In this document: piece by piece, positions 14,536 through 50,279 of the stretch
How the letters are laid out: every line of letters begins with the position of its first letter
Numbering within the stretch: position 1 is the stretch's first letter
NCBI GenBank assembly: GCA_963769425.1
Contig: CAVYLP010000004.1
Location: 320,001-384,000 of the forward strand
Source: Candidatus Bathyarchaeota archaeon
Lineage (GTDB): Archaea > Thermoproteota > Bathyarchaeia > TCS64
Reading direction: 5' to 3'
Length of the DNA: 64,000 bases
The notes under the pieces: model-generated
Database searches by the model: none
Told to the model about the DNA's origin: nothing
What the model saw: only the letters and a program-made list of their open reading frames with translations
Made by a program: the position numbers and the translations under genes

Positions 14536-14715
14536 ATGCCGACTCACGGTTCGCTGACGAAGGCCGGTAAGGTCAGGGCGCAGACGCCGAAGATCGAGGC
14601 GCAGCCCAGGACCCACCTCGCCCCCAAGAGGAAGACGAGGGCAAACTACATCAAGAGAGTAGTCCACGCGCCACGCGATGATCGCCGCGGCGGCGACCGC
14701 AGACAGCGTTTTTAA
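14536..14715 (+). CDS. rps30e: 30S ribosomal protein S30e (59 aa, absent from the ORF track)
   Basis: Manual translation MPTHGSLTKAGKVRAQTPKIEAQPR...; HGSL.KAGKVR.QTPK is the eS30 signature. Confidence 0.95.
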   Translation: MPTHGSLTKAGKVRAQTPKIEAQPRTHLAPKRKTRANYIKRVVHAPRDDRRGGDRRQRF

Positions 14716-31108: not shown

Positions 31109-31758
31109 TCAGCCGTGGCCGAGTACTCGCCTCAGGGCGGCGGGCAGCTCTTTCAGATCGATGTCTCCCCTGATGGTCTTGATCTCCCCCCTCTTCTCGT
31201 AGAAGTCGAGGAGGGGTCGTGTCTTCTCCCTGTATACCTCGAGCCTCCGTCCTTATGACCTCGGGCTTGTCGTCGTTCCTCTGAACGAGGGCTGTGGCGC
31301 AGACGTCGCATTTGCCACTCGATCTCGGCGGCTTGTTCTCTAGGTGGAAGATGGCCCCGCACTTTGGGCAGCTCCTCCTCTTGCTTAGCCTGTCGATGAT
31401 GACCTCGTCTTCTAGGTTGACGTGGAGTACGTGGTCGAGTCTTTTCCCTGTCTGCTTTGAGTACATTCTCCAGCGTGTCCGCTTGCCTCGGGCTCCGGGG
31501 ATAGCCGTCTAGAATGAAGCCGTTCGCTGTGTCGGGCTCCCTGAGCCTCTCCGCGACGAGGTCGTTCACAAGGTCGTCGGGAACCAACTCGCCCCGCTCC
31601 ATGTACCCTTTAGCGGTTACTCCAAGCGGCGTCGCCTTGGCAACAGCCGCCCTCAGCATATCCCCCGTTGTGATGACGGGCACGCCATACATCTCACCGA
31701 TGATTTTAGCACATGTCCCCTTGCCGGACCCAGGCGGACCGAGAAGCACGACCCTCAA
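31109..31758 (-). CDS. adk: Adenylate kinase (bacterial type, Zn-lid), with two single-base frameshifts
   Basis: LGPPGSGKGT, TGDMLR, LDGYPR, CPKC...CDVC lid, RNDD and RLEVY motifs; TTG start with GGAGG; frame breaks near 31457 and 31250. Confidence 0.9.
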
Positions 31759-31844
31759 AGAACAGCCTCCAAGAGCACGCAGATACCCGTCCAAGCGATT
31801 ATAACGTTTACGGGGCCCCAAACAAGAAAGAAATTATAATCTGA

Positions 31845-32132
31845 CTAAAAGCCTCTGGGATAGAGTTTTAGCATCGACTGTATGAATGGCCAGTGCTGGG
31901 GCGATAAATAGGATGGGTAACTATACATTCTGGTCATCTGTCCATTCGTATCCAGTCTCAGCTTCGCGGATGTCTTGCTCAAGAGTTCGATGTCTCTCTT
32001 GATGGGGTTGAGGTTTCTCCTCACCCTCGTGAAGAGCTTCTTCGTCTCGTTGTCCTCCGCACCCGTCTCCAGCCAAACCTTCAGTCGTCGCCTCTCAGCC
32101 TCCGTGAAAACATACTTTCTCAACGTAACCAT
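31845..32132 (-). CDS. Hypothetical helical protein
   Basis: ORF at the core/accessory junction; the N-terminal two-thirds looks protein-like. Confidence 0.5.
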   Translation of the reverse strand: MVTLRKYVFTEAERRRLKVWLETGAEDNETKKLFTRVRRNLNPIKRDIELLSKTSAKLRLDTNGQMTRMYSYPSYLSPQHWPFIQSMLKLYPRGF

Positions 32133-32666
32133 CCCGAGCTATCGCGGTGGCTAGGAATCGGATTCCATGTAGGGTGGTATAACACACTGGCTGGTTGGGC
32201 GCTTATGCCTCGCTGGTAGGGATAAGGAAAAATCATTATTTTTACACCTGTGGCAAGGAATTGCCTTTTTCCTCGGTTGCCCGATTTCTCCAGTAGTAGT
32301 AAGTCTTTGACTGTGATAGAACTGAGAGTGTCTTTAGACTCTGGGCTAAGCGGTTTGGGCCTTGTTTCGCCAGCCACTTCTGCATGGTCTCACGTTTGAT
32401 GAACGCCCTGTTTGTGCTGCCTAGTCGCTTGTAGTAGATCGCTTTTACATTCAGGAGGATGCGGCGAACCTCTGAAAAATCAAGTTTCTAACATGTTGGA
32501 CAATTCCTTTGGAAAAGTGTTTTGATGTATTGGAAGAGATTATTAAATAATATTTTTAATAACAATATAGGAGTAGTCCCACTTTACTTGCGAGCAAGAT
32601 TTCGATCACTCTCTGAGTAAATTTTGGAAAAAAGTTAAAAGATAGTTCAGGGCGTGCATCATTAGA

Positions 32667-33035
32667 ATGAACGGACTAGAATTCGACACGTCACAATCAG
32701 GCTTCAATGCTGTTCTGAAGGACTGGCAGCTCAAGGCTATGAAGGTTGTCTGGGCTTCTCCAGAGGGCGCTAATAGTAGGACGGTTTGGATTAAGGTGAA
32801 CCAAGCTCTTCACGGCGAGACCATCTCTAGAGCCAGCATCATCAACTTCCTCGAGGCGATGCGAGAGATGGGTGTGATCTCGGGTGAGGAGAAGACGGGT
32901 AAGGGTGGCCATCACTGGGTCTACTTCCCTAAGCTGGATGAGACCGGGTTCAAGAAGTATATTGTAGAGAAGATGTTAGAAATCCTGATGCGCGACTTCC
33001 CAGATGAGACTAGGCAGATTATTAAAAAACTTTAA
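32667..33035 (+). CDS. Winged-helix regulator (BlaI/Lrs14/TrmB-like)
   Basis: ISRASIINFLEAM...TGKGGHHWVY wing; paralog at 49908-50279. Confidence 0.85.
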   Translation: MNGLEFDTSQSGFNAVLKDWQLKAMKVVWASPEGANSRTVWIKVNQALHGETISRASIINFLEAMREMGVISGEEKTGKGGHHWVYFPKLDETGFKKYIVEKMLEILMRDFPDETRQIIKKL

Positions 33036-33157
33036 ACCTGAACGGCGCAGAAGCAGAGTACGCCGTGGTCGGATTATTAAGCTCGATCTGCGAGTAACAT
33101 ATCAGGCCTCGCCGAATCGGCAAGGACCCCGGGTCATCGTGAGGTATGGAACAGTCG

Positions 33158-33425
33158 TGGAACTATGGTTGTTGCTCTCGATCACAGTCGTAGTGATACT
33201 CGTCCCCTTCCTCAAGGGCAGGAAGGACAGAAAATTCGCTCGACGAAAGGCGGCGGCTATCATAGCGGCAGCCTGATCTTGTTCGTCCTCAGTGGCCTCT
33301 TTTTAGCAAACATCCTCCTCAATCTCGTCGAGAGCTTCCCATACCAATTAGGTGCAGCCCTGACCTTAATTACCTCCCCGACGCTTATGTTGTCAGGAAT
33401 CGTCACATACATCGCATCTCCATAA
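33158..33425 (+). pseudogene. Small membrane protein split across two frames
   Basis: The hydrophobic segment VELWLLLSITVVVILVPF in one frame is continued by GSLILFVLSGLFL in another. Confidence 0.35.
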
Positions 33426-33712
33426 AAAAAGAAGCCCGATGTTCACATCATCTCGACGATAAAACACAGTGTGAAGAGCCCGCCTTGAATGGTGAGAAAG
33501 GCCTATGTGTTTTTCATAATGAGGCTGGGAAAACATACGCCACTGACATCAGGAGCAGAGTTTTGATCCTTCTTAAAGTACAAAGTTTTGGAGTGAAGGA
33601 TTATAATTTTATAATAATTAGTTAAATATACTAAAAAAAGTAATTAGAAACCGATATATTCTATCATATTTCAGAAGTACATAGCCAGGATATTTAGTCA
33701 CAATATTCCAAG

Positions 33713-34123
33713 ATGGAGAGAATCGACTTGACTTGGGGAAATACTGACAATCTCAAAGATCTAGTTTGGTTATTATGCGACCTACAACCTCATAGTAAAA
33801 CCATTATTAGGCATGGATGGAGAACAGGTCTTCCCCAGGAAAAGGCTCCGATATGGGTTTTTTGCCCTCTTCTAAGATCAAACTTCCCAAGAGATCGAGA
33901 GTTAATCGAAAAATGTGAAAAGTGTTCTCATTGTAAAGGCCTAGGATTTCCCAATAGCGGAGTGGAAGATAACTCGAGAATGACATCGAATCTAAAAACG
34001 ATTAAAAAAGAAACGAGTACTTCTAAAAGAGTATTCAGTAAAGAAGAGCTGGAGAGAGCCGAGCACCTCAGCAAGATAGAAGATCAGGAATGGCTCGATG
34101 AGGAGAAGAAGCTGCAGGGATAA
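33713..34123 (+). CDS. Cys-rich hypothetical protein (possible Zn-binding)
   Basis: FCPLL...KCEKCSHCKG; charged C-terminal helix. Confidence 0.65.
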   Translation: MERIDLTWGNTDNLKDLVWLLCDLQPHSKTIIRHGWRTGLPQEKAPIWVFCPLLRSNFPRDRELIEKCEKCSHCKGLGFPNSGVEDNSRMTSNLKTIKKETSTSKRVFSKEELERAEHLSKIEDQEWLDEEKKLQG

Positions 34124-34209
34124 CTTTTTCATTGCAGCAACGTCAGTGGTTTAATGATTAGAATAATATAACGTAAATTTTCGATAGGCTACAGTCACAT
34201 TTTAATGGA

Positions 34210-34452
34210 TCAAGTTGTCGTAGACTGTTCGCATGGAATTTTCTTAGTAACTCGACTCCTTATTTTGGCGTCCCACTCCTCCATGACACCATAGTCAATC
34301 ATTGTCGTCATACCCGCAATTGCTGCTCTCAAACTGACACCAACCAAGGGTATTTCGGCCACCGTTATAATGAGGTCAGCGTGCAAGATCACTCCTTTTT
34401 CCAGGATCAAATCTAAGAGATCTACCAAAGCTCCTTCTCTTGTAGGCTCCAT
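34210..34452 (-). CDS. gvpM: Gas vesicle protein GvpM
   Basis: MEPT...ADLIITVAEIPLVGVSLRAAIAGMTTMIDYG..EEWD matches haloarchaeal GvpM. Confidence 0.9.
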   Translation of the reverse strand: MEPTREGALVDLLDLILEKGVILHADLIITVAEIPLVGVSLRAAIAGMTTMIDYGVMEEWDAKIRSRVTKKIPCEQSTTT

Positions 34453-34456
34453 GGTT

Positions 34457-36376
34457 TTAGGCCTCCTCCTCGAGTTCTAGCATTAATAGCGCCTCCCTGA
34501 GATGCTTAACCTCAGATTCAACTTTCCTGCCAGATTCTGTCTTAATCTTCCTAATTGAATTCTCAATTAGAGTCCGGTTTTTATTCGACTTACCGCTTGG
34601 AAATCTGAGTGCTGAGGAAGCTAGAAGACTCATACGTTCCACAGTATTCGCCTTTGACTTTGAGACTTCAACTATGTTAGTCAGTGCATCTGATGATTTT
34701 TTCATTTCCTTAATGTTTTCGTTTGTAATGGAGATCTCTAGTCTGCTCATAGCCTCCAAATAACCTATCTTCTCCTTCTCAGTGAGGGATTTTTCTACAT
34801 CCTCGAATAGCCTTTTAGCACCGAATAAAATAGCCTTGGCATTTTCCGCGGATTTAATATCTGCCACTACTTTAGAGTCTGCATCATCGAATTTTGTAGC
34901 CTCGATGATTTTTAAAGCAATTTCACTCTCTGTAATCTCTTTTGCACTTCTGACGGGGACATCATAACATAACCCGGTCGATAGTACCTCAGCGGAGACT
35001 TTGAGGATACCATCCGCGTCGACTTTAAAGGCGACTTCAACCTCCTGTCCAAACCTAGGTGCAGGTGGGATACCATCTATCTTCAGTAATCCCAAAGAGG
35101 TATTGCCACGTGCAACATCCCTCTCACCCTGTAGAACATGGATGATCATTGTTGATTGTTGGTCTTCTTCCGTAGAAAAATTCCGTCTCGCTAACGTCGG
35201 AATAGTTGTGTTTCTCTGGATCAACCTGGTAAATATTCCTCCAGCAGTCTCCACGCCAAGAGAGAGAGGTATAACATCCATTAGTAGCATATCCCTTATC
35301 TCGCCGCTCATGATGATACCCTGTGTTAGGGCTCCCATTGCCACAACGTTCATTGGGTCTATGCCCTCCTCCGCCTCTCTCCCGAAGATCTTGAGGATTT
35401 GTCTACGCACCACTGGCATCTTCGTAGGGCCTCCGACTAGCACCAGCTTGTCGATATCCTCGATAGATAGTGATGAGTCTTCGAGAGCTTGCATGATTGG
35501 CTGACGCAGTCTATTGGTCAACCCAGCAACTAGTAATTCGAGTCTACTACGGGTTAAGACCAATCTTGGTTTTAGTATCTTATCTCCAATAGACAGTATG
35601 GGGGTAACCGTGACTCTCTCAAGACTGGAGAGTTTTATCTTCATTTGTTCCGCTGCATCTCGGAGTGTGTTCAGGCTTTGGGGATCCGAGCTCAAATCTA
35701 TGGAACACTTTCTCTCTATTTCCTTGATGAGGTAGTTGAGGATGGCATCGTCCATATCCTTCCCTCCGAGAACAGTGTCTCCACAGGTTGATCGAACTTT
35801 GAAGATCCCCTGCCTCATCTCCAGTATTGTGATGTCGAAGGTTCCGGCTCCGAGATCGAGCACGGCGATGTCAAGATCTGCGTCTCTTTGGTTAAGGCCG
35901 TAAGCAAGTGCCGCTGCTGTGGGTTCGCTCACGATCCTTAGTACATTGAATCCGGCGAGCTCCCCCGCCTGTCTAGTCGCATTACGCTGACTATTATTGA
36001 AGTAGGCGGGCACCGTGATCACAGCCTGGTTAATTGTCTCCCCGATGAATCTCTCGGAGTCGAGCTTAATCTTCTTCAAGATGAACGAGGAAATTACCTG
36101 TGGCGTATACGATACACCGTCGACATTGAAGGTGTAATCAGAGCCCATTTGTCTCTTGACCCATCGGACGACCCTATCTGAATGAACATTAGAGTATTCT
36201 AGAGCCTTCTTACCCACGACTACTTCGCCGTCCTCTCTAAAGGCTACTGCAGATAGGAACATTTTACCATGAGCAGTCTCCCCATCCTCCGAGGGCACGA
36301 CCCTGATCTTTCCATCCTTTAAAATAGCGGCTGAAGAGTTGCTGGTCCCAAGATCGATACCCAACGTACGTTTCAA
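34457..36376 (-). CDS. dnaK: Hsp70/DnaK paralog inside the gvp operon
   Basis: GIDLGTSNS, TVPAYFN, EPTAAALAYG, DLGAGTFD, LVGGPTKMP, linker MLLMDVIPLSLGVET and substrate-binding-domain RNTTIPT...LQGER. Confidence 0.95.
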   Translation of the reverse strand: MKRTLGIDLGTSNSSAAILKDGKIRVVPSEDGETAHGKMFLSAVAFREDGEVVVGKKALEYSNVHSDRVVRWVKRQMGSDYTFNVDGVSYTPQVISSFILKKIKLDSERFIGETINQAVITVPAYFNNSQRNATRQAGELAGFNVLRIVSEPTAAALAYGLNQRDADLDIAVLDLGAGTFDITILEMRQGIFKVRSTCGDTVLGGKDMDDAILNYLIKEIERKCSIDLSSDPQSLNTLRDAAEQMKIKLSSLERVTVTPILSIGDKILKPRLVLTRSRLELLVAGLTNRLRQPIMQALEDSSLSIEDIDKLVLVGGPTKMPVVRRQILKIFGREAEEGIDPMNVVAMGALTQGIIMSGEIRDMLLMDVIPLSLGVETAGGIFTRLIQRNTTIPTLARRNFSTEEDQQSTMIIHVLQGERDVARGNTSLGLLKIDGIPPAPRFGQEVEVAFKVDADGILKVSAEVLSTGLCYDVPVRSAKEITESEIALKIIEATKFDDADSKVVADIKSAENAKAILFGAKRLFEDVEKSLTEKEKIGYLEAMSRLEISITNENIKEMKKSSDALTNIVEVSKSKANTVERMSLLASSALRFPSGKSNKNRTLIENSIRKIKTESGRKVESEVKHLREALLMLELEEEA

Positions 36377-36387
36377 GCAACTTCACC

Positions 36388-37374
36388 TTAAGATAGGACC
36401 CGACGACCTGCCAGGGAGACGATCAGCCTGTCTTCAACTAGCTGGTCATCGGTATTGCAGGGATAATTCTCGCAGTACTCGACTAAGAGATCTCTAGCGC
36501 TTTTTAGGGCCCTGAACTCGTGTTCAGTATCTGGGCTTGTGTTATCGTCTGGGTGACAAAGCCGAATCAATTTCTTGAAAACGATTTCAACGTCAGATAA
36601 TGAGAAAGGGTCATCTAAACCTAGGAGTTTCTTTGCCTTTGATACCTGCTCGAAACTAACTTTTTTTACACTGAGATTAACGAAATCGTAGGGAGGTAGT
36701 GGTGTAACACATCGGAATTTGAGCACCTCCTGGTAAGCATCTTCCAGTTCATCTATTTTTAAGAGGAAATCGGTTGAATCCCTGTCTTTCACTAGGAATG
36801 AGTTGTTGAAAATCATATCGCTATTTTCAATCTTTCTCTCTTTGCATCCAATCGCTAGGGCATTCAAGGAGTTAAGGATCCCTGGGATCAGCTTCCTCTC
36901 CTCTGACGTGAGAGACTCTTTTATTCTTCGACCTAGCTCAATTTTTAATGCTACGCTATTAGGTGCCTCTTTGAGTTTCTCGAAGGATAACTTCACGTTC
37001 TTCTCATTCATGACGTTGGATAGAACTTGATTATTCCAAGAAACCCTGATATCCACCTGAAATGTTCCCCTTAAACGTTCGATTGTTTCCTTGAAGGGGA
37101 TTAAACCCTGCTTCAAGATGTCTTTGATATCTTTTTCGTTTCTTGCGAATAGCCCAAAACCAACGGGCACCACCGAGCCCTCTTTCATAGCTCGTAAAAT
37201 GACTTTTTCATGTGTCAAAGCATCTACTGGCTTCATTTCTTCCGTGTCAGGAAATTGACTTGATAATATGCAGATTTCTTTAAATGAGATCGTTGAAACC
37301 TCGGCTCCACGAATTCCAATATTTCCTAAGCTGTGATTTCTAGGTTCACTCGCTACACAGTAGATGTAGTTCAT
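36388..37374 (-). CDS. GvpL/GvpF-family protein fused to a C-terminal J-domain
   Basis: YIYCV, HEKVI, VVPVGFG and PLPPYDFV, then AKKLLGL...VFKKLIRLCHPDD...FRALKSARDLL (J-domain with HPD). Confidence 0.88.
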   Translation of the reverse strand: MNYIYCVASEPRNHSLGNIGIRGAEVSTISFKEICILSSQFPDTEEMKPVDALTHEKVILRAMKEGSVVPVGFGLFARNEKDIKDILKQGLIPFKETIERLRGTFQVDIRVSWNNQVLSNVMNEKNVKLSFEKLKEAPNSVALKIELGRRIKESLTSEERKLIPGILNSLNALAIGCKERKIENSDMIFNNSFLVKDRDSTDFLLKIDELEDAYQEVLKFRCVTPLPPYDFVNLSVKKVSFEQVSKAKKLLGLDDPFSLSDVEIVFKKLIRLCHPDDNTSPDTEHEFRALKSARDLLVEYCENYPCNTDDQLVEDRLIVSLAGRRVLS

Positions 37375-38162
37375 TTACCGACCACCCTATCGCTACCAGA
37401 AAAGACAAAGGAGTAGGGTGGCCAAGGGCCAGTGAACTTTACGGTTAAACCATCTTTCTCGATGAAGGTTGAGAGCATTTTTCCGAGAGGCTTGACGTTC
37501 TCCGTATTAACGAGGCATGAAATTTTTAGTATCATTTGGGATTTTTCTTCGAGTGATGGAGTCTCCTGATGAACCTCATCGGAAAAAACCTTAATCTTCT
37601 GAAATTTCTCCTCGGCAATGGCTCGAGCTTCCACCTCCCTGAAGACTCTTGTTTTCTGCTCCAGTTTTTTTTGCAGGAGGTATGATGCACCCTTCGGTTT
37701 ATTCTCTAGAGCTTCCTTGAGAGCAGATACTTCGGGGTGTTTATTGACAAGTTCTCCGAGGACGCCATCATCTATGCTGATCTTAATGCTATACTCCGCT
37801 TTATTTTTGAACGTCTCTAGTAGACTAATCAGTCTGTCATGCTCCTCATTGAGCCAATTAATCACCTCTTCGTCTCCTCCCTTGAAGATTGTGTTAAACT
37901 TCAGGGGAACAACGGTCTCGTAACGATGCATCGCGAGGTCAACGATATTTTGGTGGGACATCACCCACTCTCTCGCAATTTTATCATCAGTGGTATCATA
38001 TGGTTCGGAGCTGCATTGGTGAACGATTCCGCTGATACCGTTGGTCGAGACGGAGTGAACTTGTTGTCCGTTTATTCCAGGGAAACTCAGATCTCTCTCT
38101 TTCGGAATATGATTTGTGACACAGTAGAGATATGTTCCAAGTCCACTGGTCCCATTACCCAA
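37371..38162 (-). CDS. gvpL: Gas vesicle protein GvpL (GvpL/F family)
   Basis: YLYCV, WVMSHQNIVD, VPLKFNTIF, GASYLLQKKLE and FTGPWPPYSF; follows gvpK. Confidence 0.88.
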   Translation of the reverse strand: MGNGTSGLGTYLYCVTNHIPKERDLSFPGINGQQVHSVSTNGISGIVHQCSSEPYDTTDDKIAREWVMSHQNIVDLAMHRYETVVPLKFNTIFKGGDEEVINWLNEEHDRLISLLETFKNKAEYSIKISIDDGVLGELVNKHPEVSALKEALENKPKGASYLLQKKLEQKTRVFREVEARAIAEEKFQKIKVFSDEVHQETPSLEEKSQMILKISCLVNTENVKPLGKMLSTFIEKDGLTVKFTGPWPPYSFVFSGSDRVVGK

Positions 38163-38481
38163 TTTTCCTTACCTCCCTCGAGGATTGAGGATTCACTAAG
38201 TCAATACTGTCTTCAACCAGCTTATTCAGTTCACCGCGGACATTCCTAACGACATCTGTAAGATTATTCTCAATTTTTATCAAATCTATTGCTTTATCTA
38301 ACTCAATTAGACTCAATCCAAGTCTATCTATCTCATCATCAGTTAGCTGTAAACTATCCATTCTCCTTACTGCCTCTTTCTCAAGTACATCTTTTATTAT
38401 CTCTACTAATGCGACAACCAATCCCAGTAGACCGGATTTAAGATTGTCCTCGTCTATTTTAATCATAGTTTTAAGCTCCAC
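38155..38481 (-). CDS. gvpK: Gas vesicle protein GvpK
   Basis: GLLGLVVALVEII.DVLEKEAVRRM...LTDDEIDRLG. Confidence 0.93.
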   Translation of the reverse strand: MELKTMIKIDEDNLKSGLLGLVVALVEIIKDVLEKEAVRRMDSLQLTDDEIDRLGLSLIELDKAIDLIKIENNLTDVVRNVRGELNKLVEDSIDLVNPQSSREVRKIG

Positions 38482-38500
38482 TGTTGATTAAGATTATTTC

Positions 38501-38848
38501 TTACTTCCAAATTTCTTGTTCTTTCCAGCCACACATACATTCATTTTTCTTTAGTGCGTTTTCGAAAATCTTTCCACAGTTGGGGCAAGCCTCTTTAGCT
38601 GCCAAAGCCTTCCAGGCTGGCGCGTTTAGGTTCGTCCCCGAAGGAAATTCGAGGCCGAATTTCGCCGCCGTCTCGAATGAAGCAAGTGCCGCCCTTATCT
38701 TAACTCCTAGAAGCTCCACACCAACGACACTTACCATAATGTCCGCGTTAATTACCAGACCTTTATCGAGGATCATACCGATAGCATCTGCAAGACCCGT
38801 TGGTCCTTCTTTTTCAGGGCTCAGGATTAGTTCATTTGTGTTCATCAA
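38501..38848 (-). CDS. gvpJ: Gas vesicle protein GvpJ with a C-terminal Cys cluster
   Basis: ILDKGLVINADIMVSV..VELLGVKIRAALASFETAAKFGLEFPSG; CPNC...CMC tail. Confidence 0.92.
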   Translation of the reverse strand: MMNTNELILSPEKEGPTGLADAIGMILDKGLVINADIMVSVVGVELLGVKIRAALASFETAAKFGLEFPSGTNLNAPAWKALAAKEACPNCGKIFENALKKNECMCGWKEQEIWK

Positions 38849-38961
38849 TCTCCCTCATCTTATTAACATTAGATTTCTATCTACTCTATCCAAGTCTATA
38901 TCATACTTAAGTAATGCTAAATATTTTGATACGAATTCTGTTTCGAAATTCGAAATATTAA

Positions 38962-39276
38962 CTAATTTACTTTAACGTCGTTATGTATATCGTTAAGAAG
39001 ATTAATTCTTAAAGAGTTTAAATTGTTAAGTTCTTCAATATCTCTTAATTTAAGGTTTAATTCTTTATTTTTTCTTACGTACTCTTCCCTTGTTATTTCT
39101 CCGAGCTCATAAAAGAGGCTATTTTCCTTCAAATTATCAAGTACCCATTTTTTTACTTCCTTTTGATAGGCCTCTTCTGCGTTACTCGAAATGGTTTCCA
39201 TCAACCATATCATGTCAAATGGGGGAAGCGAGAGACCTACAGAGCGTAGCAGAATATCATCTATAAAAAAAACCAT
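38962..39276 (-). CDS. gvpG: Gas vesicle protein GvpG
   Basis: FFIDDIL...LKENSLFYELGEITREEY...L pattern; follows gvpF. Confidence 0.88.
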   Translation of the reverse strand: MVFFIDDILLRSVGLSLPPFDMIWLMETISSNAEEAYQKEVKKWVLDNLKENSLFYELGEITREEYVRKNKELNLKLRDIEELNNLNSLRINLLNDIHNDVKVN

Positions 39277-39288
39277 TCACATCAAGAC

Positions 39289-40095
39289 CTATCGCTTAAA
39301 CTCTATGCCTTCTTTTCCGATCTTGATGTGAATAAAATTATAGGGTGCCCAAGGACCGCTATATAGAAGCTTCACCATCGGATACATCGATCTCAACCGA
39401 GCAACTTCCTCCGAGAACGGGGGTAAACTATCTTTCTTTACCAAGAATGATTCATTGAATAATAACCGGTCACTAAATAATTCACCAGACACCGATTTAA
39501 TTGCCAAACATTTTAGAGGTTCAAGAATTTCAGTAGGTTTTAAATCTTGAGTGTCAGTTAGATCCTTCATAATTACCCCCTTAACTCCTAGCTCAACGCA
39601 ATTCTCGACGGATCTAAGTGCCTCCGTGATGTGGGTACTCGCCTTTTCAAGGAGTTGCTTGAGAACTACTCCAGACTGGAGCACTGTTTCGAACTCGGCT
39701 GGAATAACTGTATTAGATTCCAAGAGAAGTCGAAGTACCTCGTTATGTCTCTTCGCATTCGCTTCAGTGAGCTCATATTCCCCTTTTTCAGTGTCGCTTA
39801 CGACGCCGGCTAAGCCTTCATATTGAATTACATAAACTTCTTCGTCGAGTATACCTATTTTCCCGAAATTCGCTTTTCCGTTATTGAATATTATTGCGTA
39901 GAGGTATTTTCCGGATTGCATATTTCCAACATAGGTTACTTTTGCAGATCGATTTTCTTCATTAATTTTGATATCTGTTATAGTTTCAGTATCAGCAATA
40001 ACTGTTCCCGATTCTTCACTTTTAGGTATTATCTTATAAGCTGTTTGTGTCTCCACCGTTGAGCTCAAAGTGAGTTCATTGTTAGGTTCAATCAA
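39289..40095 (-). CDS. gvpF: Gas vesicle protein GvpF
   Basis: YLYAII, LAGVVSD, HNEVL, TVIPAEF, ELGVK and YSGPWAPYNF. Confidence 0.9.
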   Translation of the reverse strand: MIEPNNELTLSSTVETQTAYKIIPKSEESGTVIADTETITDIKINEENRSAKVTYVGNMQSGKYLYAIIFNNGKANFGKIGILDEEVYVIQYEGLAGVVSDTEKGEYELTEANAKRHNEVLRLLLESNTVIPAEFETVLQSGVVLKQLLEKASTHITEALRSVENCVELGVKGVIMKDLTDTQDLKPTEILEPLKCLAIKSVSGELFSDRLLFNESFLVKKDSLPPFSEEVARLRSMYPMVKLLYSGPWAPYNFIHIKIGKEGIEFKR

Positions 40096-40984
40096 GCCAT
40101 GGATCTCTCCTTCTGTTCGAATTTAGTCTTACTGTGTTGTCAACCAGTTGACCGGCTTCCATTTGAAGGTTCGATCTACTTTGAAGATAATTATTTAACA
40201 TTTTTCGGGCTTGTATTTGGTCAGAGATTAGTTGCTGTATTTCACTCTCGGATTCGCTAGTGGTTTTGTATATCCGCTCCTTTCCCATTCTCATGGAAGA
40301 AAGTAGCCCCTTTTTCTGTAGAGAATCTAGTAGGGGATAGACGGCGCCTGGACTTAGTAGAACATTGAACTCCATATTTATCGTTTTCATTATGTCTAAC
40401 CCAGTCATCATTTTCTCCTGCATTAATGAGAGAATAATTATGTCCAAATTATCTTTCACATTCTTTTTTATGGAGTCATAAGATACCTGAAGCGATTCTA
40501 TAAATTCTCCAGAAATGAGGGCCAGATCGTTCGTCGTTAGCTGTAAGAGAGTGTGAAGTTTGGAGAGTGGTTTGATCATTTGTTCAGATAAGGCGTTTAT
40601 TCGATACGTGCAAAGGCATCTGATGGGATTCTTAGCGATTAATCCGATAATATTCTGTTCTCGCTCCCAGATCTGCTCATATGTCTGACTCGGTAGAGAT
40701 CCTGTATCGATGATTAGACGTATCTTGGTTTTTTTATCTGATTCATCGTTCAGACTATTTAATCCATCGAAGCTAAGGACTTTCAAGTTAACATTGGCTA
40801 AGTCTAATTCGTTTATGATTTTCCCTTGTTCGTCTGATGAAATTATTATTGCATCTTCATCGTCTTCCATAGAATCAAAAAAAGACTTGTGTATTAGTTG
40901 TTTATTCACCTTTGATGAATATAGGTGTAAAATATGCTCTGAAGATTTAGTGTCTATAATACAACTTAAATCATTACTAATCAT
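40088..40984 (-). CDS. MEDS-like sensor domain fused to a PadR-type wHTH (GvpE-like regulator)
   Basis: EHILHLY...WEREQ...CLCTY (MEDS-like) followed by LDIIILSL...LLSPGAVYPLL.SL.KKGLL. Confidence 0.75.
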   Translation of the reverse strand: MISNDLSCIIDTKSSEHILHLYSSKVNKQLIHKSFFDSMEDDEDAIIISSDEQGKIINELDLANVNLKVLSFDGLNSLNDESDKKTKIRLIIDTGSLPSQTYEQIWEREQNIIGLIAKNPIRCLCTYRINALSEQMIKPLSKLHTLLQLTTNDLALISGEFIESLQVSYDSIKKNVKDNLDIIILSLMQEKMMTGLDIMKTINMEFNVLLSPGAVYPLLDSLQKKGLLSSMRMGKERIYKTTSESESEIQQLISDQIQARKMLNNYLQSRSNLQMEAGQLVDNTVRLNSNRRRDPWLD

Positions 40985-41059
40985 ATATATTCATCCATCA
41001 CTAGCAATTGGTTTCTCTTCCTGATATTGAATTATTAACTTTAACATTGTGAAAGTTCT

Positions 41060-41347
41060 TTATCCTGAGTAGTGATCAAAGCGTTTACGGATCAATATCT
41101 GCTTCCAGCCCAAAATCTTGCCACTTGCATTGAAGTTAACCTGGTAACGACTGAGAAGATCTTGAGAGTCGGGCATACCCTTTCTTTCGAGAGCCTCAAC
41201 GATTACGTACCAGCCATCCTTGGACTCCTCGATACTTACAACCGTCTCAGCTTTACGTAGAATCGTATTTTTCACTATATCCATTGCTGACATCACAAAA
41301 AATTCGATTGGGGGAGTATTCTGCATCATAGCTTCGTTACTTGACAA
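41060..41347 (-). CDS. gvpO: Gas vesicle protein GvpO
   Basis: DGWYVIVEALERKGMPDSQDLLSRYQV. Confidence 0.92.
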   Translation of the reverse strand: MSSNEAMMQNTPPIEFFVMSAMDIVKNTILRKAETVVSIEESKDGWYVIVEALERKGMPDSQDLLSRYQVNFNASGKILGWKQILIRKRFDHYSG

Positions 41348-41349
41348 GT

Positions 41350-42363
41350 TTATTGATCCTTCCTGTAGACATCCCTCAATACATCGTCAACTAAGGTGAT
41401 GTACTTCGAATCCGATTCGGGACCTGAGATCTTTGAGGAAAGTACATCGAGGTATATCTGCTGAATGTCCTCGAACTCTCGACTCATCATTACTCTTAGC
41501 CCCCTTCCAACCATTATAGCCGCTCGGGTTCCCGGCTTCGACTCAAGGGGCATTTTATCCCTAATATGCCTCATCGAAGTAACTACTTTTCCCGCGTCTT
41601 CGTCATTAAGCCCAGTGTGCTTCATCACAATATCGAGCTCTGTGGGGAAATCGTAATAGTCCATGTAAATGTGAATCATGCGATCCAGAAGGGCATCTTG
41701 TGGCCTGTGAACACCAGCATACTCGATGGAGTTGCTTGTGAATATTACACTGAAGTTAGGATGCACCTTCACGTAGCGTTGTGCACCAAACATCATTGGA
41801 AGCTCGAGAATGCCCTCTTCGAGGACTGAAAGTAGCACGTTGTTGGCCATCGGCTTTGCTCGAGAAAACTCGTTATAGATTAGAGTGTAGCCATACTTAC
41901 ATGCGATCGTAAGTGGGTTATCCACCCACATGTATTTACTCTTGTCCTTCGCGACGACGACGTTGTGTACGTACCTATCCCTAATTATGGATGTCTCCAT
42001 CTCGGAGTACCCTCCGATCAGGTCTCCAGTTGTCATTTGATCGTCTCCGTTTACCCATAGAATGGGTTGGCCCATTTTCCTGGCTACGGCTAGCGCTAGC
42101 GTCGTCTTCCCACACCCGGTTGGACCTATTAGATGTGGAGAATACCCAACATCGGTCCACTTCACTACTCGCTCAATTATCTTGCTGACTTGTTCTGTCT
42201 CCACGAAATTCTCATTGGCTGGAACCAGAAACTCGAAATCTACTTTATCAATTTTTATAGGTTCTTCGTTTTTCACTCTTTTCTTCTTATCTGAGTGCTC
42301 CTTCATCGTGTCATGTATTTTTGACCCAATCACTCGTCGAGGATGCGCTTCCTTGTAATACAT
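41350..42363 (-). CDS. gvpN: Gas vesicle AAA+ ATPase GvpN
   Basis: HLIGPTGCGKT, VDNPLT, YNEFSR, TSNSIEYAGVH.PQDALLDR. Confidence 0.96.
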   Translation of the reverse strand: MYYKEAHPRRVIGSKIHDTMKEHSDKKKRVKNEEPIKIDKVDFEFLVPANENFVETEQVSKIIERVVKWTDVGYSPHLIGPTGCGKTTLALAVARKMGQPILWVNGDDQMTTGDLIGGYSEMETSIIRDRYVHNVVVAKDKSKYMWVDNPLTIACKYGYTLIYNEFSRAKPMANNVLLSVLEEGILELPMMFGAQRYVKVHPNFSVIFTSNSIEYAGVHRPQDALLDRMIHIYMDYYDFPTELDIVMKHTGLNDEDAGKVVTSMRHIRDKMPLESKPGTRAAIMVGRGLRVMMSREFEDIQQIYLDVLSSKISGPESDSKYITLVDDVLRDVYRKDQ

Positions 42364-42493
42364 TCCTTTCTTATCACCTGAGAATGAGGGCTCCTTAGCC
42401 TTTTTAACTAATATTTAGAAAATAGTTATGAGTATTGAGTCGAGTTTGGAAACATTAACAATAAACGAATAAGTGAAAAAACTAAGAAATAGG

Positions 42494-42652
42494 TTATGTC
42501 GCCTTTTGCTTATTTTCCATATTACTCTTCAGCCATATGGTCCTTACACACTGTGGGCGAGGAACAACTGACATATGTTGAGTCATTTCTCTGAATTTCT
42601 TTGACCAGAGTAACTGTTTTATCCTTTTTGGATTCTTACTTGCTATAGACAT
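42494..42652 (-). CDS. Small basic protein (52 aa), positional GvpI-like candidate
   Basis: Manual translation MSIASKNPKRIKQLLWSKKFREMTQHMSVVPRPQCVRTIWLKSNMENKQKAT; GAAGGT just upstream and a TTATATA box further up. Confidence 0.5.
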   Translation of the reverse strand: MSIASKNPKRIKQLLWSKKFREMTQHMSVVPRPQCVRTIWLKSNMENKQKAT

Positions 42653-42860
42653 ATTTCTTAACCTTCTACACTGAGCTAAAACGATTCTCTGAAAGTATAT
42701 AACAAATATTCAAGGAGATGAAACGTAAATTGTTTCGAATCCGGATGTTCCTTTTGATTAATGATAATGAAGTTTGTTTAAAAGAGTTTTTTTGATAAAT
42801 CTATTGATAAATATAATATGAGTGACAAAGAGCGAGTAAATAGTTTATTTTTTGATATTT

Positions 42861-43574
42861 TTAGATTGTCTTTAACTTTTTTAAAGTTATTTCTAAAATA
42901 CCATTTTCGTATTTCTTTTTAACATCAGTTTTATCGGCTTTTTCAGGGAGGTTTATTTCGATGAGGTTATTGTCATTTAGACCAGTATTTATTTTTAGCT
43001 TATCCCGATCGACTTCGACTGTTATTTTCTTTTCGTCCAAGTTTGGTAGCTCAGCTATTATGGTGATGTAGTCGACATTTTCCGTTATTTCGATTAAGGG
43101 TTCGTTATTATCTAGGGATTTGGGTAAATCTCCGAGTTTTAAGTTGAGGGATGGCTCTTTTCCAGGACGTTTACTGTTAAGACTGCTGTGGCCAACGATA
43201 TGACCTTTCAGAGGTCTGGCGTTTATTTTATATTCGAAGACACCTTTTTTTCCTGCTACCTCAAATTCCTTTTTAACATATTCCGTTTTTTCTGATAGTT
43301 CAGATAATCTGTTAATAATATCTATAAATCCGCCGTTTTTATTATTATCACTCGCCTTTCCAGAAATTCCCATAGTGTTAAAAGTTAAATTGAATAGATC
43401 TGATACCTCATTCACCATTTTCTTTAAATCACTATTTTCATCTACTTGTTTATTTTTTTGCATCTTTTCATTTAATTCTTGTAAGCTTTTTTCAATTTTC
43501 TCGATTTCATTTTTCCTTTGTTTTACTTCTTCCGATAAGTCCTCTATTTTTTTTCTGATGTCATCATTTGACAA
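42861..43574 (-). CDS. Hsp20/alpha-crystallin-domain protein with an N-terminal coiled coil (GvpH-like)
   Basis: EPLIEI...IIAELP...YENGILEITL motif; heptad-rich N-terminus. Confidence 0.8.
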   Translation of the reverse strand: MSNDDIRKKIEDLSEEVKQRKNEIEKIEKSLQELNEKMQKNKQVDENSDLKKMVNEVSDLFNLTFNTMGISGKASDNNKNGGFIDIINRLSELSEKTEYVKKEFEVAGKKGVFEYKINARPLKGHIVGHSSLNSKRPGKEPSLNLKLGDLPKSLDNNEPLIEITENVDYITIIAELPNLDEKKITVEVDRDKLKINTGLNDNNLIEINLPEKADKTDVKKKYENGILEITLKKLKTI

Positions 43575-43589
43575 TTCATTAACACACTC

Positions 43590-43958
43590 TTAGACATTAT
43601 TCGCGTTCAAATTTTTTAATAAATGTATATTTACAAAACTGAATATTCTTTCACTATGTTTTTGATACGAATCATTAATTATATGTACCCTTATTTGACC
43701 TTTCTCAGTGAGAGAATATAATTTTCTTCTATCCATGGAGTTAACTTCTATAAATCCCTCCTTCTCAAGATGATATAGAAGAGGGTACAGAGTCCCTGGG
43801 CTAAGTAAAACGCCGAACGACTTGTGTAATTCTCCGATTAATTTGTATCCGTATATGGGTTCGCCATTCAGCATAGCAAGTACTATTACGTCTAAAAATG
43901 TCTTGATCATGCTGTCGTTTAGTTTTTCCGAAGTATATTCTGGATACATCGTGGTCAT
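43590..43958 (-). CDS. PadR-family regulator (GvpE-like)
   Basis: LDVIVLAML...YGYKLI...LLSPGTLYPLL..LEKEG...RRKLYSLTEKG. Confidence 0.9.
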   Translation of the reverse strand: MTTMYPEYTSEKLNDSMIKTFLDVIVLAMLNGEPIYGYKLIGELHKSFGVLLSPGTLYPLLYHLEKEGFIEVNSMDRRKLYSLTEKGQIRVHIINDSYQKHSERIFSFVNIHLLKNLNANNV

Positions 43959-44125
43959 GGTAGGTACAACAGTTAGTTTGTTATTAAACAGTTATGAATG
44001 CCATATTTATGTAAAATATACATCCAGATGAATTATCAATCTATACAAGAAAATCATGTAAATTAAACATCTATAATAAGGATATTATGTTTAATGATTT
44101 ATAGTATATTTTCTGATTTGATATA

Positions 44126-44157
44126 AGAAACGGATATCTAAATATTGCTTATATAAA
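44126..44157 (+). promoter_or_regulatory. Putative gvpA promoter (TATA box plus upstream motif)
   Basis: TTATATAAA at 44149-44157, preceded by AGAAACGGATAT at 44126-44137. Confidence 0.45.
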
Positions 44158-44235
44158 GAAAGGGAATGTTCTGTGTTTAGGCGAGTCGAGAACGAAGAGT
44201 CGCCGACAAAACAAAAAAAGGAGTAATGAATGAAA

Positions 44236-44460
44236 ATGGTAAGTCAAACCCCAGATGCAAGCAGTCTCGCAGAAGTTATCGACAGGATACTGGACAAAGG
44301 TCTAGTCGTGGACGTATGGGCCAGGGCTTCACTGGTTGGGATAGAGATCCTGACCATCGAGGCTCGCGTGGTCGCAGCCAGCGTTGACACGTTCCTCCAC
44401 TACGCTGAGGAGATGACAAAGGTCGAGCAAGCGGCCATTGCCGTTGCCCCAGCTGCGTAG
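44236..44460 (+). CDS. gvpA: Major gas vesicle structural protein GvpA
   Basis: [51 protein letters not shown]; alternative start at 44230. Confidence 0.98.
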
Positions 44461-44499
44461 AGGATACCTACCACCTACTGACCTCTTCTGTTGAGGTGT

Positions 44500-45015
44500 A
44501 TGACCACGGCCGAATACAATGAAGCCAAAGAAACGTATATCAAGGAGCTAGCAAGCAACAACTCAAGGAAAAAGTTGGATGAGATAGCATCGGCTTTGGA
44601 CCTTGACCCCAAGAAGTACGCGAGCAAGAGGGAGATTGCATTAGCAATCATGCTGGCTGGCAGTCAAGCTCTGTTGTATAGGTCTAACGTCGACACCGCC
44701 GATACAGAAGAGGAAAAAAAGGAGATGAGTAAACAAATGAGTTCCGTGAAAAGCATCAGAAAAGCCATCAACGACGAAGCAGAGAGTTTCATGACATTCT
44801 ATAAGGGCGAGTTTATGACCAACATAGCAGCGTTCCATGATGCCACTCAGATGTTCAGAGAGGACATCAAAAAGCAGGTGAAGGAGAACAACGACTTTGA
44901 TCATGAATTTGGTCAGAGTGTCAAGAAATATCAGGACAGCATAGAAATCTTCAGACGCAGCATACTAGAACAGTCAAAAGAGAACCAAAAATACATCAGA
45001 CAGTTCTACGGCTAA
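44500..45015 (+). CDS. GvpC-like helical repeat protein with an extra N-terminal domain
   Basis: Directly after gvpA; two approximately 32-aa amphipathic repeats (F..............FR..I..Q.KEN..(F/Y)...F); GAGGTG Shine-Dalgarno before ATG 44500. Confidence 0.6.
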   Translation: MTTAEYNEAKETYIKELASNNSRKKLDEIASALDLDPKKYASKREIALAIMLAGSQALLYRSNVDTADTEEEKKEMSKQMSSVKSIRKAINDEAESFMTFYKGEFMTNIAAFHDATQMFREDIKKQVKENNDFDHEFGQSVKKYQDSIEIFRRSILEQSKENQKYIRQFYG

Positions 45016-45067: not shown

Positions 45068-45410
45068 ACTAATTCGTATTTTTTTTAATAGTTTAGGAAG
45101 GGGATCAATAATTTATATAATTTAATGTGATTCTTAATAATATCTTTTAATAAGTAAATTTGTTGAATAGTATTGGAAATAATTTCCTTATTGATATTTA
45201 TTTCTTACTATCTTTTCTTATAACCTTAACGATGATTACTACTAATTCGTATTTTTTTTAATAGTTTAGGAAAGGGATCAATAATTTATATAATTTAATG
45301 TGATTCTTATAATATCTTTTAATAAGTAAATTTGTTGAATGGTATTGGAAATAATTTCTTTATTAATATTTATTTATTACTATCTTTTCTTATAACCTTA
45401 ACGATGATTA
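45068..45410. repeat. Tandem duplication, 2 x about 172 bp
   Basis: Copies start ACTAATTCGTATTTT at 45068 and 45241; about 6 differences counted by eye. Confidence 0.95.
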
Positions 45411-46406: not shown

Positions 46407-46679
46407 TTAATTGGTTTTTTTGAATCCAATAACTGGATAGAGGTTTTTCAACTCTTTTTCTCTCTCATCTAATTGTTTTTCAATCAGTTCTAATAGTTGT
46501 TCAGGTGAAAATGGTTTTACAATGTACTCGTGTACCCCATAGCGGATAGCCTCCTGAGCGGTCTCAATGGAAGGATAGCCTGTAATGATTAATTTCCGGA
46601 TTACTGGCTTAGTGTCCTCAATAAAACCTATTAATTTTACTCCATCCATATCAGAGAGTTTAACGTCAACAATAATCAA
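46407..46679 (-). pseudogene. Response regulator receiver domain, N-terminally truncated
   Basis: IIVDVKLSDMDG, IITGY and YIVKPF motifs; the first acidic-pocket strand is missing. Confidence 0.75.
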
Positions 46680-49907: not shown

Positions 49908-50279
49908 TTACAATATCTTTGAGATAGCTTTCCTCGTCTCAGCGGGGAAGTTCTCCAATAAGCAAGTCAACATTGTTTCAACTATGTATTTTCTAAATCC
50001 TTCTTCATCCAATGGAGGGTGATAGACGTAGTGATGACCACCTTTACCGGTCGCGTCATCCCCTCGTATTACCAACATTTCACGCATTGCTTCAAGGAAA
50101 TTGATGATGCTCGCTTTACTGATAGGTTCATTATTGAGGGCCTTGACCACGGAGTTCCAGACAGTACTGCTGGATACTCCCTCGGGATGACTCCAAACCA
50201 CCTTTATCGTCTCAAGTTGCCAGTCCTTGATGACCGCAAGGAAGCCGATCCGAGACGTATCGAATTCGATTTCGTTCAT
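49908..50279 (-). CDS. Winged-helix regulator (BlaI/Lrs14/TrmB-like), paralog of 32667-33035
   Basis: ISKASIINFLEAMREM...TGKGGHHYVY. Confidence 0.85.
   Translation of the reverse strand: MNEIEFDTSRIGFLAVIKDWQLETIKVVWSHPEGVSSSTVWNSVVKALNNEPISKASIINFLEAMREMLVIRGDDATGKGGHHYVYHPPLDEEGFRKYIVETMLTCLLENFPAETRKAISKIL

Follow-up and report, generated by a model that had tools for sequence, protein, structure and literature searches.

Gene content of the gas vesicle cluster

Here, we focus on a gas vesicle protein (gvp) gene cluster in a stretch of 64,000 nucleotides from the genome of a Candidatus Bathyarchaeota archaeon. The whole stretch is referred to as the window, and positions given without a contig name are counted from its first nucleotide. 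The genome (G000) comprises 2.55 Mb in six contigs, is 91% complete with 4.9% contamination, and holds the window at C4:320001-384000 of a 425-kb contig. Between positions 34210 and 45015 lies an intact gvp cluster of 15 genes, every one of which has an open frame, as seen with Pfam and NCBIfam (Table 1). Two of them, gvpA and a short GvpC-like gene, are on the plus strand. The remaining 13 run on the minus strand from 43958 down to 34210, in the order PadR, small heat shock protein (sHsp)-like, N, O, GvpE-like, F, G, J, K, L, a fusion of a GvpF/L domain with a J domain, Hsp70 and M. A first-pass annotation, made from the letters alone, had listed gvpA, N, O, F, G, J, K, L and M as intact, and both databases bear out these genes at the coordinates it gave. 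Its inventory passed over two genes in the same range, the 639-residue Hsp70 and the GvpF/L-J fusion, which are the most distinctive features of the cluster.

Eight genes are essential for vesicles in Halobacterium (A, F, G, J, K, L, M and O), and the window has all of them plus gvpN. GvpF/L, GvpG, GvpK and GvpO all exceed the Pfam cut-offs, as GvpN does that of TIGR02640. For GvpJ and GvpM the best NCBIfam models are haloarchaeal ones, and both proteins score below those haloarchaea-specific cut-offs. In gvpF, an internal Met near residue 59 may be the true start. The whole 2.55-Mb genome contains three matches to PF00741, the family of GvpA, all three within the cluster. GvpA of the window is about 83% identical (82-83%) to that of Halobacterium salinarum (locus L057), and its N-terminus, MV(S/T)Q(S/T)PD, is common to non-halophilic archaeal loci including those of Methanotrichaceae; in Haloarchaea it reads MAQPDSS. 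Also common to the non-halophilic archaeal loci is a zinc-ribbon-like GvpJ tail (CPxC...CPxCGW), which weakly matches the HVO_0416 zinc finger model of NCBIfam. Reading by eye, we find a TATA-like element (cttatataaa) about 70 nt upstream of the gvpA ATG and a GGAG just upstream of this ATG.

Table 1. Features of the gvp cluster and of the low-GC region around it (window positions).
Feature	Positions	Strand	Evidence and remarks
ORF122, left member of an inverted paralogue pair	32667-33035	+	65% identical over 122 aa to ORF123; no Pfam match
ORF136, conserved beside gvpM in the sister species	33713-34123	+	73% identical ORF in L005; dN/dS 0.175; no Pfam match
gvpM, GvpA-family minor protein	34210-34452	-	PF00741 52 bits; best NCBIfam model halo_gas_GvpM 106.4 bits, below cut-off 109
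Hsp70, divergent DnaK paralogue	34457-36376	-	639 aa; PF00012 528 bits, profile positions 103-593 plus N-terminal part
GvpF/L domain (residues 1-240) with C-terminal J domain	36388-37374	-	328 aa; PF06386 154 bits; DnaJ 26.4 bits, cut-off 27.8
gvpL, GvpF/L family	37371-38162	-	PF06386 201 bits
gvpK	38155-38481	-	PF05121 63 bits
gvpJ with Cys-rich C-terminal tail	38501-38848	-	PF00741 49 bits; best NCBIfam model halo_gas_GvpJ 94.7 bits
gvpG	38962-39276	-	PF05120 32.1 bits, cut-off 30.6
gvpF	39289-40095	-	PF06386 130 bits, match begins at residue 62
GvpE-like regulator	40088-40984	-	298 aa; PadR 34.7 bits; MEDS 21 bits, below cut-off
gvpO	41060-41347	-	PF05800 55.9 bits
gvpN, AAA+ ATPase	41350-42363	-	TIGR02640 325 bits, cut-off 266.8; AAA_5
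sHsp-like protein, possibly GvpH-like	42861-43574	-	PF00011 (HSP20) 22.4 bits, cut-off 20.8
Stand-alone PadR-family regulator	43590-43958	-	PF03551 56.5 bits
Intergenic stretch, AT-rich, separating the divergent PadR gene and gvpA; presumed promoters	43959-44229		Sequence read by eye
gvpA, major shell protein	44230-44460	+	PF00741; NCBIfam GvpA 126.3 bits, cut-offs 100 and 112
Short GvpC-like protein	44491-45015	+	174 aa; position after gvpA and profile similarity
Decayed, very AT-rich stretch, about 32-36% GC	45016-49900		Gene fragments, local duplications
ORF123, right member of an inverted paralogue pair	49908-50279	-	No Pfam match

The host and the relatives of the cluster

The GC-rich left flank on the same contig encodes Nop5, Elp3, GatD, GatE, NurA, HerA and aspartate carbamoyltransferase, and archaeal 16S and 23S genes are on contig C6. 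From the presence of rps30e, the first-pass annotation had placed the host outside Euryarchaeota, and this agrees with S30e, rRNA and GatD. S30e is encoded at 14542-14688; among 14 control genomes its family was found only in Sulfolobus and in none of the three euryarchaeal controls. GatD of the window is 84-93% identical to that of a Bathyarchaeota-labelled genome, in which the gene is split by frameshifts, 54-57% to those of three other Bathyarchaeia-labelled genomes (BA2 included) and 46% to that of Methanothrix. The placement of the host as a non-euryarchaeal, Bathyarchaeia-type archaeon holds, as judged from submitters' labels and archaeal housekeeping genes. In the sister species, GatD (G001 C9:14306-15637) is split over four frames; its assembly seems rich in frameshift errors, and gene content there is to be read with care.

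A protein search with GvpN gave 2288 matches, the best 120 of which are all at least 56% identical, with the named ones among these from Bathyarchaeia and BA2. More than 100 metagenome protein clusters have a GvpN at this level of identity (at least 56%). When species representatives were scanned, with one genome per species, 69 loci were obtained. Nineteen are labelled Bathyarchaeota or Bathyarchaeia, BA2 included, and their GvpN is 55-88% identical over full-length matches. The remaining loci (GvpN 44-52%) are labelled Methanocellales, Methanothrix, Hadarchaeota, Nitrosotalea, DPANN groups and Halobacteria, with a few under bacterial labels. In a GvpN tree of 58 rows, from which 12 loci with matches shorter than 280 residues were left out, the window forms a clade with 17 Bathyarchaeia-labelled rows and no others (Shimodaira-Hasegawa-like approximate likelihood ratio test, 97). 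The neighbours of this clade are Methanothrix/Methanocellales, Hadarchaeota and DPANN forms, with Halobacteria across a branch of 0.87. The earlier description of the cluster as haloarchaeal-like is contradicted by this tree, and the gene order also speaks against it.

The full order A-(C-like)-N-O-E-like-F-G-J-K-L-F/L-J-Hsp70-M is common to 15 of the 16 loci L005-L020, the exception being L009 without the distal part; three further Bathyarchaeia-labelled short contigs are uninformative for gene order. The first-pass annotation saw significance in the layout and took gvpNO to have moved, but gvpN-O in line with gvpF-M is the normal arrangement in all non-halophilic archaeal loci examined. The divergent gvpA, which had been counted as another haloarchaeal-like trait, is a local inversion: of the 13 loci having gvpA on the contig, 12 have it in the same direction as gvpN, and L012 alone has it inverted, like the window.

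Novelty was likewise overstated, with the same cluster type in 19 public Bathyarchaeia-labelled loci. The cluster is a lineage-specific variant of a known system, present in public genomes and sometimes annotated (NCBI annotation names some relatives' proteins GvpN and DnaK). A survey of Bathyarchaeia genomes, proposed as a check by the first-pass annotation, did find the gvpA family in the class, but rarely: PF00741 occurs in 6 of 401 sampled species (the window's genome counted), equal to 5 of 131 genera, and in 4 of 219 among high-quality genomes. Of 40 relatives searched, two had a true GvpN. As for the literature, no description of this cluster, of gas vesicles in Bathyarchaeia or of Hsp70 in gvp clusters was found in a search that excluded subscription journals and supplements. 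In one paper (PMC7554672), a figure legend on gene families of ammonia-oxidising archaea includes "gas vesicle formation genes", and gvp genes in a TACK lineage have thus, going by that legend, been noted before.

Archaeal-type gvp contigs are also seen in a Bdellovibrio bin (L036), a Bacteroidales bin (L039) and a Pseudomonadota bin (L065), of which L036 groups with DPANN, L039 with Methanothrix and L065 with the Bathyarchaeia type; mis-binning or transfer is the likely explanation. A locus with a Methanotrichaceae label (L035, 4809-9074) has seven tandem gvpA ahead of gvpN and a second GvpN-like match inside the cluster. L010 and L018 are two separate full Bathyarchaeia-type clusters with the same isolate label and belong to different GvpN subclades, so that one bin may hold two clusters.

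Cluster-encoded Hsp70 and the GvpF/L-J-domain fusion

The fusion protein is the third GvpF/L paralogue of the cluster. In profile searches its residues 1-240 match solved GvpF structures (6l5d and 4qsg, E 3e-28) and residues 255-306 match solved DnaJ J domains (1bqz and 5nro_B, E 3e-12). The HPD motif is at residues 274-276, with helices 259-273 and 283-303 on either side in an AlphaFold2 model (predicted local distance difference test score, pLDDT, 85.8). This motif is kept in 17 of 17 fusions (the window plus 16 homologues from related loci) and in 56 of 56 sequences of a wider family alignment. A complex prediction for the GvpF/L domain (residues 1-240) with GvpA reached a score of 0.42, with 0.29 for a single control, and allows no call either way on binding.

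The fusion turned out to be widespread. A word-based homologue search gave seven matches and was too insensitive for the family. With a profile built from 15 fusions, 612 representatives were found at E <= 1e-30 among 1.84 billion, and 141 of the best 150 span the J domain. The ESM Atlas auto-names clusters of this family "DnaJ/GvpL/GvpF domain-containing protein", and most of their labels are bacterial. Scanning metagenomes with one fusion subfamily added 80 loci (L099-L178), in which the order is A-N-sHsp-(GvpF-like x2-3)-G-L-J-K-J. That the J fusion is an invention specific to Bathyarchaeia was considered and is rejected by these profile matches, Atlas labels and metagenome loci.

The situation is different for Hsp70. 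The cluster protein scores below the DnaK equivalog cut-offs of NCBIfam (576 and 567 bits versus 648 and 822), and the best 120 of its homologues are all at least 50% identical, the named ones being from Bathyarchaeota, BA2, Thermoproteota and the L065 record. In a tree of 19 rows (the window, 14 gvp-linked and 4 canonical proteins, with truncated L013 and L020 copies left out), the gvp-linked Hsp70s are separated from the canonical ones by a branch with 100% support, and among themselves they branch in the same pattern as GvpN. The labelled members of this clade are Bathyarchaeia, except for L065. The gvp-linked copy is the sole Hsp70 found in BA2 (G003, L008) and in G002 (L006), both of which are incomplete bins; two other Bathyarchaeia genomes, as well as the window's, hold a canonical Hsp70 too. 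Among the other 50 loci without a Bathyarchaeia label, Hsp70 and the J fusion occur together only in L065, a 6-kb contig labelled Pseudomonadota. Among the 149 loci examined, an Hsp70 within the cluster is therefore a speciality of the Bathyarchaeia type.

GvpC-, GvpE- and GvpH-like genes

The first-pass annotation also named GvpC-, GvpE- and GvpH-like genes. Homology to haloarchaeal GvpE is seen in the C-terminal half of the GvpE-like protein (hhalign 97.8%, E 1.2e-12), whose gene is located just upstream of gvpF. Haloarchaeal GvpE itself matches PadR of Pfam with 31.5 bits, and the fold of the C-terminal half in the window matches the PadR winged helix (Z 12.8). The N-terminal 160 residues adopt a RecA/KaiC-type fold in the AlphaFold model (pLDDT 73), with fold matches to FlaH (Z 13.7, 145 residues aligned, root-mean-square deviation 2.7) and KaiC (Z 11.8). 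No Walker A motif (GxxGxGK[ST]) was found in this KaiC-fold domain, where the strand-loop-helix reads HxLHLYxSKVxK. The pattern HxLHLYxxKVxK is conserved at the P-loop position, with His17 and Tyr22 invariant in 24 sequences, which points tentatively to binding of a ligand or partner instead of ATPase activity. As a homologue of GvpD by sequence the N-terminal half was rejected (hhalign 0.6%); the fold class alone agrees.

For the GvpC-like ORF, Pfam matches up to E = 1 include no GvpC family (PF05465, Halo_GVPC), compared with 139 bits for GvpC of L057 in the same scan. An ORF of 117-270 aa just after gvpA was aligned from 13 Bathyarchaeia-labelled loci, and a C-terminal ...FYG is shared by the window ORF and 12 of these 13. 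The family profile compares with haloarchaeal GvpC at an hhalign probability of 94% (E 1.4e-7, 76 columns, terminal FYG aligned), a score that helical low-complexity sequence can inflate, and with the post-gvpA ORFs of methanogen, Hadarchaeota and one Bacteroidales-labelled locus at 98% (E 2.4e-13). We read the 174-aa ORF as a probable short, distant relative of GvpC, bearing in mind that helical sequences inflate such scores.

The GvpH assignment is weak. The sHsp-like protein has a coiled-coil N-terminus and an alpha-crystallin-like C-terminus, and it reaches 59 bits with the archaeal Hsp20 model of NCBIfam, below the cut-off. Compared with candidate haloarchaeal GvpH, a set chosen by position that may mix GvpH and GvpI, it gives an hhalign probability of 56% (E 1e-4) through the alpha-crystallin-like C-terminus.

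Comparison with known systems

The gvpACNO/gvpDEFGHIJKLM cluster of H. salinarum (L057) and the window share homologues of A, N, O, E, F, G, J, K, L and M, to which a distant counterpart of C can probably be added. GvpN is 47% identical between the two, GvpE is PadR-like in both, and in both gvpA is divergent from the assembly operon. Unlike H. salinarum, the window has neither a separate P-loop GvpD nor GvpI; instead, a KaiC-fold domain lacking Walker A is fused to the GvpE homologue. Furthermore, gvpN-O are inside the assembly operon, Hsp70 and the J-domain GvpF/L have been added, and the GvpN clade is distant. The GvpC-like protein has 174 aa, as opposed to 285-413 aa for the stop-to-stop frames of 13 haloarchaeal GvpC ORFs aligned. 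The YNEFSR motif of GvpN and the non-acidic composition of the proteins, the latter another difference from H. salinarum, are present just as the first-pass annotation described them.

Loci of Methanothrix/Methanotrichaceae (L024, L026, L028, L030, L034 and L035) resemble the window in the N-terminus of GvpA, the Cys-rich GvpJ tail and a collinear A-N-O-F-G-J-K-L-M order with an sHsp-like gene. In contrast to the window they have no Hsp70, no J fusion and mostly no detected GvpE-like gene, gvpA is in tandem (up to 7 copies, in L035), and GvpN is 47-54% identical. Gas vesicles of Methanothrix thermoacetophila are reportedly discussed in one paper (PMC10470525). The Bathyarchaeia loci L005-L020, to which BA2 belongs, have the same order, Hsp70, J fusion and GvpE-like fusion as the window (GvpN 55-88%); they differ in that their cluster GC equals flank GC and gvpA is mostly co-oriented with gvpN, whereas the window shows a low-GC island with gvpA and the C-like gene inverted. 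The metagenome loci L099-L178 carry the same fusion with an invariant HPD and an sHsp-like gene after gvpN, but they lack Hsp70, contain several tandem GvpF-like genes, and their GvpN is only 38-44% identical.

Compared with the DnaK-DnaJ system of Escherichia coli (PDB 5nro), the window pair likewise consists of an Hsp70 with nucleotide- and substrate-binding domains and a J domain with HPD. Unlike DnaJ, the fusion is without the Gly/Phe region, the zinc finger and the C-terminal client domains, and has the GvpF/L domain in their place. Also unlike the E. coli system, the window cluster has no GrpE gene, and its Hsp70 stays below the DnaK equivalog cut-offs.

The island and its history

The first-pass annotation recognised an AT-rich island in a GC-rich chromosome, and the cluster indeed has 40.8% GC compared with 59.3% for window positions 1-31000; GC at third codon positions is 0.31-0.61 versus 0.76-0.86. 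In the other Bathyarchaeia loci, clusters of 38-46% GC have flanks of 40-48%. With its low GC here and flank-matched GC elsewhere, the cluster looks imported from a low-GC Bathyarchaeial lineage. A composition unlike that of the host, a patchy occurrence in relatives and a composition like that of putative donors are all found, as is typical of horizontally acquired genomic islands. GC of the genome as a whole is very uneven (mean 0.547, standard deviation 0.06, minimum 0.27), with about 20 low-GC islands, the largest at C3:12-50 kb.

The only bracketing feature seen is the ORF122/ORF123 pair, which encloses the whole low-GC region of about 17 kb. Among the ORFs scanned at 29.3-33.4 kb and 45.8-60.4 kb there was no match to an integrase or transposase, and tRNA and Rfam scans of the window found nothing. 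The decayed stretch to the right of the cluster contains two PadR pieces, a response regulator without its N-terminus (46407-46679) and AbrB-like pieces in a 90-nt inverted repeat (45413-45502/46975-47064), together with a 173-bp tandem duplication (45068-45410). From 45 to 64 kb, only scattered single genes match congeners, with no conserved synteny.

The cluster of the sister species (L005) is collinear with window positions 43961-33647 at 80% DNA identity, and collinearity stops at 33647. Core segments compared between the two genomes are 79-87% identical, so that the cluster predates the split of the two species. About 3 kb separates the gvpM end in the sister from a region homologous to G000 C4:398-406 kb. 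In four of four congeners, the DNA upstream of the position like C2:53.5 kb runs into a homologue of C3:180.8 kb. We infer that a low-GC Bathyarchaeial lineage passed the cluster to the high-GC genus of the window before the two species diverged, and that a relocation within the chromosome followed.

Contigs from other metagenomes tie the cluster physically to host DNA. One of them joins 31457-31936 to 32571-33339 and skips the 634 nt between (31937-32570), while others cover 32837-34285 and 33669-35034 and tile on to gvpM and Hsp70. Peat and sediment runs are the origin of these contigs, which are 90-99% alike, with shares of at most 0.23; they are therefore from related populations and not obviously the source. 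Their cover has gaps, for instance at 43.7-44.3 kb in two runs. Inside the skipped 634 nt is a dispersed repeat of about 110 bp (32151-32261), of which more than 10 copies exist on C1, C3, C4 and C6 (74-84% identity) and which may be a small mobile element or a conserved gene fragment. The join of the island to the host is thus supported by contigs of other metagenomes, despite a synteny breakpoint at the GC drop.

Selection, function and alternative explanations

The genes of the cluster are under purifying selection. Relative to the sister locus L005, dN/dS (nonsynonymous over synonymous substitution rate) is 0.055-0.245 at dS 0.5-1.1 in 14 of 14 genes, among which are Hsp70, the fusion, both PadR genes, the sHsp-like gene and ORF136. 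This argues for function in both lineages. The window carries an intact gvp cluster of a Bathyarchaeia-specific type, in a host genome with relatives in peat and sediment metagenomes, and we consider our reading of it as a vesicle-forming system probable. Vesicle formation and buoyancy would be the expected consequences, judging from the gene set.

Several observations weigh against this reading. Within the genus, the cluster is present in 2 of 18 species, and with the trait so rare in the class it is not a general Bathyarchaeial property. In 5 of 5 congeners, sister included, adk (31153-31821 in the window) is followed by a homologue of G000 C2:53.6-70 kb, not by the island; relative to the genus, G000 has at least three synteny breakpoints, one of which (about 31.85 kb) is exactly at the GC drop. 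The sequencing runs listed as holding the stretch include no RNA run. Clusters of gvp genes are also known from soil and sediment organisms in which their role is unclear, and a buoyancy role is therefore not secure. The knuckle of the window GvpJ, ECMCGW, is one residue shorter than that of the sister (ECPLCGW) and shorter than in homologues. The window's genome encodes a second, more canonical Hsp70 (C4:155806-157533, 43% identical to the cluster copy), so the cluster copy is not strictly needed in this host. Finally, none of the 80 metagenome fusion loci has an Hsp70 (0/80), and the fusion alone thus needs no dedicated Hsp70.

It is unlikely, in our judgement, that the cluster is kept for a role other than flotation, such as stress tolerance, control of cell volume or surface, or gas storage in a porous matrix. 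Such a role would suit the peat, sediment and soil metagenome runs in which related sequences occur, habitats with little open water, as well as the related clusters in tiny DPANN-labelled and in Hadarchaeota-labelled genomes, and purifying selection shows that there is a function, not which one. However, these are the canonical genes for vesicle formation, GvpA is highly conserved, and to our knowledge every characterised system with this gene set makes gas vesicles. Vertical gradients, moreover, do exist in water-saturated peat and at sediment-water interfaces.

Much less can be said for the cluster as a silent or recently stranded passenger of a genomic island, unused by its host. The foreign composition, the decayed, pseudogene-rich stretch adjoining at 45-49.9 kb, the absence from 16 of the 17 other species of the genus searched and the missing synteny to the right would all fit, but the 15 genes are all open, and dN/dS of 0.06-0.25 at dS 0.5-1.1 in 14 of 14 genes is unlike silent DNA; we regard this as very improbable. 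An assembly or binning artefact, with the island derived from another organism (the chimeric join that the first-pass annotation itself had named as a finding that would overturn it), could draw on the sharp GC drop, the breakpoint at about 31.85 kb with a different adk neighbour in 5 of 5 congeners, the contamination estimate of 4.9% and the archaeal-type gvp contigs in bacterial-labelled bins (L036, L039 and L065), but it is hardly credible when the window starts 320 kb into a 425-kb contig of a six-contig genome, adk (31457-31936) is connected to 32571-33339 by a contig from another metagenome and further contigs tile to gvpM and Hsp70, the sister has this cluster on a contig together with a homologue of C4:398-406 kb, GvpN and Hsp70 fall in Bathyarchaeia-labelled clades (with L065 as an exception in the Hsp70 tree), and low-GC islands are common in this genome (72 of 1012 5-kb windows below 45% GC).

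A proposed model for the cluster and its implications

If the Bathyarchaeia-type cluster does direct vesicle formation, the roles of most of its products would be those established in Halobacterium and cyanobacteria. GvpA would form the ribbed shell and the short GvpC-like protein would stiffen it, while GvpJ and GvpM, with F, G, K, L and O, would serve in vesicle nucleation and the AAA+ protein GvpN in vesicle growth. The divergent gvpA and gvpN-M operons would be regulated by the two PadR-type proteins, one of which is the GvpE homologue fused to the KaiC-like domain lacking Walker A. This fusion may unite in one chain what haloarchaea split between GvpD and GvpE.

The remaining components suggest a chaperone step. 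A 2024 review (PMC10903477) describes GvpF and GvpL as GvpA-associated proteins that may be chaperones. In the third GvpF/L paralogue, the GvpF/L domain would hold hydrophobic clients of the GvpA family and the J domain, through its HPD motif, would activate the cluster Hsp70. With an Hsp70 of its own, the cluster could carry out this step independently of host DnaK, and the cells would gain buoyancy or a means to keep their position in water-saturated peat or in the pore water of sediments. BA2 and one other genome, in which no other Hsp70 was found, would fit a cluster that is portable into archaea without DnaK. Taken to its full extent, the model would have peat and sediment Bathyarchaeia truly making vesicles by means of a self-contained module, in which the J-tagged GvpF/L hands GvpA-family clients to the cluster Hsp70 and which can be carried into archaea without DnaK, with the KaiC-like-GvpE protein as the undivided counterpart of GvpD and GvpE. 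This full version is speculative, and we think it rather doubtful.

Bathyarchaeia rank among the most abundant archaeal groups in anoxic sediments and peat, and they are commonly regarded as sediment dwellers without motility. A complete gvp cluster that is under selection in a minority of species suggests that some Bathyarchaeia control their vertical position, with consequences for their access to substrates and redox interfaces. The field has yet to explain how the hydrophobic GvpA stays soluble and arrives at the growing vesicle, and here the fusion together with Hsp70 offers a testable handle. Gas vesicles have been engineered as acoustic reporters, and the chaperone pair may matter for gas-vesicle reporters in new hosts. 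The fusion of a KaiC fold with GvpE provides a simpler model for regulation of the GvpD/GvpE type. If the proposed handover from GvpF/L to Hsp70 is true, GvpF/L proteins in general would be client adaptors of a chaperone pathway.

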